A stretch of DNA of 64,000 bases from Botryllus schlosseri (GCA_051294905.1 CM119371.1:496001-560000); one strand, 5' to 3'; positions 20,680-34,741 are shown, counted from the stretch's first letter. Notes: a model not told the origin generated them from the letters alone. Made by a program: numbers and translations.

Positions 20680-20784
20680 TTCCCAATCCAATTTTCCAGA
20701 TAGCGATTCAATCCGACGATGTCCGAGAAGTGAACGTAGTGCTGTTGCTGAGAACTTATTGCGACGCAAATCCACTTTTTTCAC
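20680..20784 (-). CDS. NLR-like gene, cassette exon a (copy C), LRR, 35 codons
   Basis: tcattccag| VKKVDLRRNKFSATALRSLLGHRRIESLSGKLDWE |gtgaga. Confidence 0.75.
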
Positions 20785-21576
20785 CTGGAATGATGAATGA
20801 AATATGAATACAATGTATGCCAATATCATGTCAAGCTAACAAAGCTTTGTACAGACTTATTCAAGGCATACTTCGGAAGCTGAGTATGTTGTCATTTCGA
20901 TCCTTATAATAAAAGCAAACGACCCTAGGTTTAGAGCCACGGTCTTTTACTAATCCAGTCAAATGGCTTCAATCAATTCTAGGAATACACCGTACTCTAT
21001 AATTGAGATTACGTTTTGATTTCAGTGAATGATGGCTAATTTTATTCACTTTCGATTTCATTTTTGCGAGCCACAGTAGGATCAACTGTAATTTGTAATG
21101 GAGCTGCATGCAATTATTATATATTTTCAGGTTATTTTAATTGTCATTATAGCATTTCTATTCTGTGTAATTGTAATTGTAATTTTATAACAGTTCTCTA
21201 ATTACAATTGCATTGTTATTGAAACCTGACAATCACAACATAAAATAATTAGCCCATTAACATGGGTGTTCTATGAGTACCTCGTTAACTAATTCAACCA
21301 TACTAACTGATTCCAATAGGCCAACTTCAGCTCCAACAGAAAACTTGGTGAATTACAATATAGGCTATTGAACAAAATCTTACTATTTCATAAATGTACG
21401 AAAAGCAAATAAACTATTCTGTAACCTGCGCTGAACCGTTTCCTACACCACGGTCAGCGTTTTTTATTAAATCTCTTTCCAGTACTGTGGCTTGTTGCAG
21501 CAATTGCAAAAAGGATTTCAAGTTTTCAACCAAGACTTCATCACGTTAGATCACTCATTTGTAGAGATGTTAGTTA

Positions 21577-22492
21577 GGGGAGATGTGGTACCGATGGATC
21601 AAAAATTGCAAAATGATCTCTGGCCCTCAAGTCTTCAGCCCAGAATAGCAGATCTTTCGCTGTCTCAACACTTCGATACAAGCTCTACCTATCGCGGACA
21701 TTTACATGAATATCCGCTTTTTATCAACAAATATTTATAAACGTTTAAAATTTGTTGCTTGAACGTGTCATCGGTCCCCACCCAGTGGATCCAAAGGCAC
21801 ACGACCCTGGGACCTATGAGAAATACGCTCAAAAACTCAAATTTGTTAACTTGTTTTTTTTTGCGTACTATAAGCTAAGCTATAGCAAGCCAATGAGTAA
21901 TGTTTCGTCGCGACCTTCAAGAATAAAGTAGAGTATATCAACTCAATGTTGGCATAAAATCATGTTTTGATTTACGCCTAAACTTAGAAAATGAATGCAA
22001 CATATATATTACCCGCTTATCGACATTTTGACTTTCAAATACCTCGTAATAGCGATAAAACATCACATGTACCTATGATATACAGCCTATAGATATGTAG
22101 GCGAGTTTCTGTTGTTAAGTGATTAGTGGTCCCATCTATTCTGCTTGATTTGGCTACGATACCACTCGAGGATGGTATTGATTCAAAAAAGATGTGCCAT
22201 TATCTATCCTGATACAAGCTCTATACTTCGCATCAAAAATTATGGCGGGTTTGTTAGTCTGACAGGTGTTATAGAAAAATGCAGATATCGATTCAAGTTT
22301 ACTTTACAACCGTAAAACGTAAATCATTCGTCACAGACCCCATAACTCACGCAGGTCGATTCTTTGTGCATGTGAGGATATTTTCTGTCAGCATATAATT
22401 GTAGACAAATTCACGGAGTGTAATCATGGAATTATCATGGAGAATTTTTCAAGTATTTCGGTCCCAGTGATCCATCGGTACCACATCTCCCA
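21577..22492. mobile_element. Tc1/mariner-pogo-like MITE
   Basis: 24-bp perfect inverted repeat gggagatgtggtaccgatggatca (21578-21601 / 22468-22491) with TA on both flanks. Confidence 0.65.
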
Positions 22493-32296: not shown

Positions 32297-32398
32297 CTTG
32301 AAGTTAAAGTGACCTTCAATCCCGTCACCACTTATCTTGATGACATCTTCTTCGTTCTTCAATCCAACTTTCCCTCTAACTACAGTCAGCTTGACAAC
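32297..32398 (-). CDS. NLR-like gene, cassette exon b (copy B), 34 codons
   Basis: aatattcag| VVKLTVVRGKVGLKNEEDVIKISGDGIEGHFNFK |gttgga. Confidence 0.65.
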
Positions 32399-34636
32399 CT
32401 GAATATTATCCAGATGTGAAACTCGAGATCATGCATTGTATCGCTATTCCACCAAATATCGTGACGTCATATCACACATCTAGTGACGACCGCAGCATCA
32501 CAGATCATCATCCGCTATACATCGACACGAGCTACTGATTTTACTGGCGTTTATGCTGGTCGTAGCATTTTGCGACATTTGCGATCCGGAATCCCCAGAA
32601 ACGCTCGTTTATATGAGGTAATAAGTATATTGGCGGAATCAGGAGAAATAGTATACAGATTTATGCACCTGAAAGCGTCCTAAACCGAATTCCTGAATTT
32701 AAACGAATTCACGAGCGATTTTCGTCTTTTCAATCGGAACGCGAAATTGGACAGTTTGCTATTGTGAGCATGTACTTCAAAATAACATCGACACCGTGGT
32801 GACTCCTATAATACGGAGCAAATAAAGAAAAGAAGCCCAGAACGTTGTTATAATCAGCAAACAATTTTGCGATGCGATGTCAGATCTCATTGTGGTGGCC
32901 TATTACTAATCAGATCCGCGTTTTCGTGATCAAGAGATCATCAGTTGCGTACTAATTCATGTCTACATGCGCACTCCGGTATTGTCGCGGTGCTAGCAAT
33001 GCTACTGGTTACGTACGCACAGTGTTTGGCAGTGGCACGAGGCGTTTGATTACCTAAACCGGCCTTAGTTATTCAAAATATCGATGCAAGTATTCTGAAT
33101 CAATTCAAATTCTTAAACCGGAGACGTGACGCGCCCCAATAAACTTTATTGACAGATAACTGAGTGGTATCGAACACATCAATATCGAATTCCAAATAAT
33201 TGTGTTATTGAGGTCGTGACATGCGCTCAGGTCTCGTTTCGCTGCTTTCATGCTACGTATTCCAGTATTATTAAAGTAGATGGCATGCTATGATATTAAT
33301 TAGACAGAGTCGATAATAAAATGTCGAATAAGTAGTTAAATACTGTACGCGCCGAAACTGGGTATGCGCCGAACATGGGTATGCAAGTTATGCAACGCAT
33401 ACCTAGACATTTTTTAGGTATGCGACATACCCAGAATTCGGTTTGGCATGTATCGGCATAAACCGCGATTGTGTTATTTATTAGAAAAAAATCACAATGT
33501 GTTTCCGCTTGCGACATTATCTGCTGCCGCTTATGTGAGCGAAGTAACCAATTGCGCAAGGCCAATTAGCGAGAACGAGAAGCGTGTTGCCAATTAGAAA
33601 TATTAGTTTATGCACATTGCACAGAACACTGCACAATGTAACGCGACACGATTTCCCGCTGAGATGATCGCGAAATGATGTCATTGATTGCCGTGCGCTC
33701 GGCAATTGTCGCTTGCCTGATTTCTCGCGTCTCCAACAAGCCTAGTTTCACTAGCTTGAACAATCACATCAGCAGTAGGCCCGATGCGCACCGCACCATC
33801 GCTAGCCTGCACTATCGCATGTGCATTGTGCAATGTGCATTGGCGCGAACGACATCGCTTGCCAACACAATCTCAGTTGCAACAGGCCTGTTACGAAAGA
33901 TCGCTGGGCAACTATCGCGTCTCGAGTATAGCATGCGTTGCCTCCTATCTCTCGATGGCTTGTAGACAATGCCGTGACATCGCCAAACTGAACGAATATC
34001 CGCAGGCATGTGCGATTGTGCGTGCGCCGTGCATGTGTAATTTAAAGCCGCTAATACTTAAACATAACTATCATAAGAAGTGTGTTAAGGCTTGAGTTAT
34101 AAAAGACGGTTTGAAGGTTTGAAGAACCTGAAATCGGTGCCATTGTAGAACAGATTCCATAACAGCTCGGACATTTTGCCTTGCGCAAATCGCCGCCGAG
34201 GTTACGTAATAAGGTTGATAAGCGGCGTATTGCATTGATCGCAGGCGATCAGGGAGTCGCTAATTGACAGCATTTCCGGACTCGTTGACAAGCTTAATAT
34301 CATACGCGCGAGTTCGTTAATACGAAGGGATTGTAAAATCGGCATTTACGCATGTCCTTAACCCTCATGAATGGATGTTATATTAACCCTAATTATCAAT
34401 TCCGTCACCTTATGACGTCATTTCTTTGTAACGTCATCGAACCATACCTGACGAAAATTTGCGTTCGGCGCCTATGACTGTACAGTGTACGTACGTCTTG
34501 TGAATGGGATGTATGCAACTGTGTTCTCGCTGGACTATGACGTCTGTATCGTCACAAGCCTCCGCACACACACATAATATTACGGTTCGGTATTTATGCT
34601 TGTTAGTACACAACTGAATCCTAGAATCGATCTCAC

Positions 34637-34741
34637 TTCCCAATCCAATTTTCCAGATAGCGATTCAATCCGACGATGCCCGAGAAGTGAACGTAGTTTT
34701 AATACTGAGATGTTGTTGCCATGCAAATCAACTTCCTTTAC
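34637..34741 (-). CDS. NLR-like gene, cassette exon a (copy B), LRR, 35 codons
   Basis: tcgttccag| VKEVDLHGNNISVLKLRSLLGHRRIESLSGKLDWE |gtgaga. Confidence 0.8.

Follow-up and report, generated by a model that had tools for sequence, protein, structure and literature searches.

Variable and constrained patches in a triplicated LRR-like exon module of an NLR-type gene from Botryllus schlosseri

LRR tails of described NLR-type proteins

Frame-preserving LRR exons are known from vertebrate NLRs, for example, human NLRP3 (available text of PMC6642158). In plant NLRs, the LRR region is described as subject to duplication, unequal crossing over, gene conversion, and diversifying selection (available text of PMC3782705), and in brown-algal ROCO genes, whose LRR exons are shuffled, four selected sites have been placed on the concave face (available text of PMC11378527). 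For both of these groups, the pattern is already established, and new repeat copies in general are reported to diverge fast under relaxed and positive selection (available text of PMC5120217). In the literature covered, which comprised titles and the starts of abstracts with most subscription journals lying outside the coverage, nothing was found on selection on ascidian NLR repeats.

Here, we describe a minus-strand NLR-type gene in a 64,000-nt stretch of Botryllus schlosseri DNA (the whole stretch analyzed is referred to below as the window), which contains three tandem copies of a module of three exons, a, b, and c, of approximately 119 residues, with the reading frame preserved. Frame-preserving exons are common to this module and vertebrate NLRs; however, according to the available source, NLRP3 exons are 171 nt long and hold two canonical repeats, whereas those of the module are of irregular length (105 nt for exon a, 96 to 102 nt for exon b, and 147 to 150 nt for exon c) with degenerate repeats. 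Two canonical 28/29-residue repeats per exon of approximately 168 to 171 nt were absent from the module, whose exons span 96 to 150 nt. The plant NLR and ROCO results, as given in the parts of those sources available, draw on many repeats or genes and on formal site tests, whereas the present comparison involves three copies and yielded no robust site.

By convention, an LRR carries the motif LxxLxLxxNxL, within which the x positions are designated. The nearest named relatives of the gene are NLRs of Styela clava (e.g., "NACHT, LRR and PYD domains-containing protein 3-like" and "protein NLRC5-like"; LOC120326636 and LOC120335173). When the NACHT exon was compared with longer proteins, 14 of the 22 matches were to S. 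clava NLRs, at 31 to 36% identity along 96 to 99% of its length, with the remainder from Clavelina (n = 7) and a fish (n = 1); comparison with proteins of similar length gave 37 matches, including contig-derived products of up to 51% identity. The Styela NLRs are also homologous to exon L, but not detectably to exons a, b, and c, for which profile searches against the Styela repeats gave best iE values of 0.1, 1.2, and 0.67, respectively, none of them significant. The Styela proteins instead carry 55- and 58-residue tandem LRR repeats; a candidate homology between exon c and the 58-residue repeat was rejected, as the profile search gave it no support. In a structural model of one Styela protein (P0002), NACHT gives way to repeating strand-helix units; the PDB structures that matched it best were those of NLRP14, NLRP9, NOD2, and NLRP3.

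Within a protein, copies of the Styela 55-residue repeat (27 in-register repeats from 9 proteins, with 10 scanned by seed and 5 off-register rows dropped from a total of 32) differ at x positions in 46% of comparisons versus 15% elsewhere (p = 4e-5), although the repeats are not fully independent, since some of the proteins could represent alleles or versions of a single gene. This pattern favors the idea that, in the Botryllus module, ligand-contacting residues of the concave face and the adjoining loops are under diversifying selection while the rest is under purifying selection; the 58-residue repeats (11, from 3 proteins) count against it, with no x excess in the register used (0.16 versus 0.17). 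The family pattern in Styela makes diversifying selection plausible as a prior, at the protein level, where tolerance and selection are not separated.

The gene and its triplicated module

The gene model comprises 13 exons and 1,067 codons without internal stops (Table 1). All 13 exons can be joined in a single frame, and every intron has GT and AG ends. The NACHT exon matched PF05729 with an E value of 6.9e-13 and 49.2 bits (curated cutoff, 26.7), both Walker motifs were found, and matches to a winged helix (PF17779; E = 4e-4) and HD2 (PF17776; E = 1e-3) followed, both under the Pfam cutoff. Exon L gave weak matches to LRR_1 and LRR_6 (E = 0.06 to 0.07). No Pfam match was obtained for 12 short segments, which included all nine module exons and covered exons a to e, and profile and Pfam searches found no homologue of exon d. 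Neither a PYD nor a CARD was found: the candidate first exon gave no Pfam match to an effector domain (CARD, PYD, DEATH, or TIR), the 63-residue frame around it was without a Pfam match, and further exons may lie upstream. Ascidian NLRC proteins without a CARD are mentioned in the available text of PMC11508797.

Table 1. Positions of the features of the NLR-type gene within the window
Feature	Position	Strand	Basis
Candidate first coding exon; ATG, 49 codons, phase-1 donor	49647..49794	-	Phase compatible with NACHT exon
NACHT exon, 1,437 nt; Walker A and B motifs, putative winged helix and HD2 start	44766..46202	-	PF05729
Exon L; putative HD2 end and first LRRs	37738..38045	-	Styela NLR match, best iE 7.8e-11
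Module copy 3, exon a (variable codons 34694-34741, constant 34640-34693)	34637..34741	-	Sequence comparison
Module copy 3, exon b	32297..32398	-	Gene model
Module copy 3, exon c, one codon shorter	31143..31289	-	Gene model
Module copy 2, exon a (variable codons 27085-27132, constant 27031-27084)	27028..27132	-	Sequence comparison
Module copy 2, exon b	25798..25899	-	Gene model
Module copy 2, exon c	25103..25252	-	Gene model
Module copy 1, exon a (variable codons 20737-20784, constant 20683-20736)	20680..20784	-	Sequence comparison
Module copy 1, exon b, acidic variant, two codons shorter	18700..18795	-	Gene model
Module copy 1, exon c	17076..17225	-	Gene model
Exon d, 168 nt, phase 0, predicted	11226..11393	-	Sequence prediction
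Last coding exon with stop, predicted	7938..8165	-	Gene model
Duplicated block, copy 2, including introns	22836..27315		Self-BLAST, 84-90% to copy 3
Duplicated block, copy 3, including introns	28445..34924		Self-BLAST; intron divergence 10.0%

The best public DNA runs contained only 34 to 40% of the words sampled from the NACHT exon (positions 44700 to 46300), which could reflect divergent alleles or fragmented contigs, and among the runs listed as containing this exon, with a best share of 0.40, none was recorded as RNA. In 4 of the 24 listed runs, mapped on positions 18101 to 38100, none of the 15 joints shown (1,151 in total) corresponded to a predicted intron, and RNA depth around the predicted exons was low. 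This mapping was dominated by dispersed repeats, with 40 of 2,798 variant rows shown, and is uninformative on splicing and on alleles of exons a and b; exons c1, d, and e and the NACHT exon lie outside the mapped stretch.

All nine module exons are in phase 0 and of a length divisible by 3, none contains a stop or frameshift, all AG/GT ends are kept, and the two indels that distinguish copies preserve the frame; exon a has 35 codons in each copy, and the donors of exons b and c read GTTGG or GTCTG. A strand is predicted at the start of each module exon. Exon a begins with the full LxxLxLxxNxL motif, which was otherwise found, in loose form, only in b1; exons b and c carry looser motifs, and the module is called LRR because of these motifs together with its position in the gene. 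A profile of exon a retrieved generic LRR proteins along its first 13 to 19 positions, approximately; the six proteins found were one true relative and five generic LRR proteins. An alignment search with exon c gave no match at an E value of ≤10 among 1,702 candidates of 89 to 2,000 residues, and exon c2 had no usable match in the ESM Atlas. AlphaFold2 modeled exon a alone as one helix (residues 10 to 28) at low confidence (pLDDT, 64; pTM, 0.26).

By eye, exons a and b resemble each other in length and share an (L/I)SG motif in their nearly constant second halves, and on these sequence features they may be old paralogues of one exon. The second strand-like segment in exon c (minus strand, positions 17106 to 17138, 25133 to 25165, and 31173 to 31205) contains the most diverse codons of the module, with V, S, or Y at codon 34 and H, Q, or K at codon 36. 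Small high-copy repeats with very high summed depth lie within the module introns (20102 to 20513, approximately 23990 to 24120, and approximately 29590 to 29730), the latter two of which were duplicated together with the module.

Copies 2 and 3 are the youngest pair, differing at 390 of 3,892 aligned intron columns (10.0%), and copy 1 diverges from both by 16 to 25% in blocks around exons b and c. These differences, together with distinct insertions, the maintained a-b-c order and single frame, and the comparable tandem repeats in Styela NLRs, make it very improbable that haplotypes or paralogues were wrongly placed in tandem during assembly, despite the fact that no contig listed in the mapped runs spans the stretch. 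The feature is real and ordinary in kind, adding to the NLR family a gene whose tail module is degenerate and triplicated.

Elsewhere in the window, three intronless frames of 210, 113, and 299 residues lie at 59763 to 62027 without a Pfam match above the cutoff; the second of these may resemble a Bcl-2-type helix bundle. An inverted repeat pair (53790 to 54102 and 58718 to 59030; 313 bp, 97.8% identical) flanks approximately 4.6 kb, within which short frames (55480 to 55833 and 56616 to 56999) look by eye like retroelement remnants.

Variable and constant patches among the module copies

A preliminary description of this DNA had placed a hypervariable beta-strand face next to an invariant block in duplicated LRR exons. 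The peptides quoted in it are real, all lying on the minus strand in exons a and b of the triplicated module, while exon c was absent from it. The variable start and constant remainder of exon a were confirmed, as 10 of codons 1 to 16 but only 1 of the 19 codons from 17 to 35 vary in protein (Fisher p = 0.0006). Codons 16 to 34 are invariant in protein across the three copies, and the chance of such a long invariant run is 6e-5.

Whether the variable codons have changed faster than introns depended on the pair compared. Between copies 2 and 3, 17 of the 48 nt of exon a codons 1 to 16 differ, far above the intron rate (p = 2.6e-6), and none of the 48-column intron windows reaches this count (maximum, 15). 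For this pair, the preliminary description withstood its own refuting condition, a substitution density no higher than in adjacent introns. For pairs with copy 1, the outcome was less clear, as the density was at most marginally above that of the flanks, with 14/48 nt (p = 0.23) and 12/48 nt (p = 0.19) in exon a and 11/39 nt (p = 0.049 and p = 0.26) in exon b.

The charge reversal described for exon b exists, inasmuch as copy 1 carries the acidic variant (VVKLDADGCDVEL), which lies outside the interval from 20680 to 34741 to which that description referred; however, it sets one copy against two identical ones and does not amount to hypervariability. Copies 3 and 2 are identical at the "variable" codons of exon b (0/39 nt; p = 0.016 at the intron rate), which counts against diversifying selection there. 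In its favor are the swings in net charge over residues 1 to 12, which is -1, -2, and +4 among the copies of exon a and +3, +3, and -3 among those of exon b.

The proposed identity of the variable residues with the concave LRR face was borne out in part. Of the 10 positions that vary in exon a, only five are exposed x positions (2, 3, 7, 8, and 10); of the rest, positions 4 and 11 show conservative changes of core residues and 13 to 15 follow the motif, while the central strand residue D5 is unchanged in all copies. A division into a variable concave face and a constant scaffold is too simple, as the constant block probably includes the next strand. A fourth, contig-derived relative of exon a departs from the three copies at 5 of 18 residues in the "invariant" block, and its variable part differs from theirs at 6 to 8 of 15. 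The block is, on this sequence comparison, conserved within the gene and not across the family. Positions 7 and 8 differ again in this relative, as diversifying selection would predict.

Codon models fitted to three module copies have little power either way, and a nonsignificant result does not equate to absence of selection. Across the whole module, dN/dS was 0.91 to 0.95, not different from 1. For exon a, dN/dS was 0.98 in codons 1 to 16 and 0.05 in codons 17 to 35 (p = 1e-4 against 1), with synonymous changes present and amino acid changes absent in codons 17 to 34. Thus, the firm signal is one of constraint, and the purifying selection proposed for the constant block is supported. For codons 1 to 13 of exon b, dN/dS was 2.7 (p = 0.11), a value derived from a single branch.

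A module-wide dN/dS near 1, a value of 1.16 in exon c outside the strand, the lack of Pfam matches among the nine module exons, and the relaxed selection said to be general among new repeat copies (available text of PMC5120217) would all fit modules largely freed from constraint, as young duplicates or in early decay, in which the patches represent old constraint plus chance. The intact frames, splice ends, and in-frame indels of the nine exons and the dN/dS of 0.05 in the constant block of exon a argue against this reading, which we consider unlikely.

In the three strands that most resemble LRRs, 13 of the 18 residues at x positions (2, 3, 5, 7, 8, and 10 of each strand) vary, compared with 38 of 101 elsewhere (p = 0.009), and four of the seven three-state sites in the module fall at these positions. 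With a shared synonymous rate, dN/dS at these sites was 2.3 (p = 0.015 to 0.017), which counts in favor of diversifying selection. When the sites were given their own free local rate, the value fell to 1.7 (p = 0.43); in this model, the x sites of exon b alone gave p = 0.04, a degenerate estimate on six codons. The x sites of exon a alone gave 1.3 (p = 0.58). Between copies 3 and 2, differences at x sites reached 7/18 nt in exon a and 5/18 nt in the second strand of exon c, against 10% in the introns, again in the direction expected under diversifying selection. However, hardly any variation is seen in the remaining three predicted strands (2 of 18 vary), and across all six no enrichment at x sites was found (15/36 versus 36/83, p = 1.0; dN/dS, 1.08). 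Since the strands and their registers were picked after the alignment had been seen and five definitions were tried, the x-site p values are optimistic.

A site test of M1a against M2a gave p = 0.014 to 0.021, which would also favor diversifying selection; however, only codon 34 of exon c passed, and no site in exon a or b. This result was rejected as evidence of positive selection, as it comes from a single multi-base codon with a dN/dS above 150, and artifacts of multi-base changes in site tests have been described (available text of 10.1101/165969 and PMC11601313). Diversifying selection on ligand contacts, the central proposal of the preliminary description, is thus plausible at this module but unproven, given the dN/dS of 0.98 in the variable block of exon a and the loss of the x-site signal with a free rate; we regard it as a possible, tentative explanation.

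Duplication history, exon exchange, and interpretation

The duplication tree predicts that copy 1 should stand apart from the other two, and in exons b and c it does so at 43 of 58 two-state sites. In exon a, it stands apart at only 4 of 24 (p = 3.7e-6 for the contrast), and allowing separate branch lengths per exon improved lnL by 17.5 for 6 parameters. Exon a thus breaks the duplication tree, and exchange between copies is therefore indicated; the gene conversion that had been suggested for the scaffold finds support for the whole of exon a. Copies 1 and 3 are closer in exon a than in its flanks (15/105 versus 23.5%, p = 0.014), and only 2 of 80 nt differ between them across the end of exon a and the donor flank. 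Between copies 3 and 2, each half of exon a carries more synonymous differences than the introns would suggest (pS of 0.34 and 0.28 versus 0.10 for introns), an excess found both with pathway counting (8/26 sites, p = 0.003) and with strict counting (5/19 sites, p = 0.035). The simplest reading of these sequence patterns is that the copies traded exon a among themselves or with paralogues elsewhere; we infer this mechanism indirectly because, when a conversion tract was sought with a runs test, the result was not significant (p = 0.057 and 0.28). In one DNA run, bins over most module exons had a summed depth of 125 to 354, while contigs with 0 to 1 differences to the window had a depth of approximately 5, which suggests further related module copies in the genome, although summed depth does not give a copy number.

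Constraint together with exchange explains the pattern without needing positive selection, with a modest share of positive selection possible, and we assign this reading a probability of about 0.5. It and diversifying selection can hold together.

Under constraint plus exchange, the module would form the C-terminal tail of an ascidian NLR-type protein, in which a NACHT ATPase switch is followed by a degenerate LRR-like solenoid. The frame-preserving module was duplicated twice in tandem, introns included; the second half of exon a is held by strong purifying selection, the first half changes at approximately the synonymous rate, and exon a would have been acquired by exchange with another copy or from paralogues elsewhere. 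Three LRR-like strands with their following loops, located at the start of exon a, the start of exon b, and the second strand of exon c, may constitute a tolerant surface able to alter ligand contact, whereas the three other strand-like segments would be fixed for folding and structure or for self-contacts. Changes in the tolerant strands and loops could move the charge of the surface from -2 to +4 (exon a) and from +3 to -3 (exon b). By analogy with NLR biology, the solenoid tail would keep the NACHT switch inactive until its release by a ligand or disturbance.

To the described cases, this locus contributes a degenerate module specific to its lineage. It also offers a caution, in that the contrast is striking for its conserved block and not for proven hypervariability. 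Should positive selection and exon exchange both be proved, ascidian NLRs would be counted among receptors whose specificity is tuned at strand positions of the LRR, and the residues named here would be available for specificity-swap tests. A more far-reaching scenario, which we consider doubtful, is that a new three-exon solenoid unit, with variable strands interleaved among fixed ones, replaced the canonical LRR tail in this ascidian lineage, with tens of module copies genome-wide feeding variable strands by germline gene conversion. If true, this would mean allele-rich intracellular recognition in a close invertebrate relative of vertebrates.
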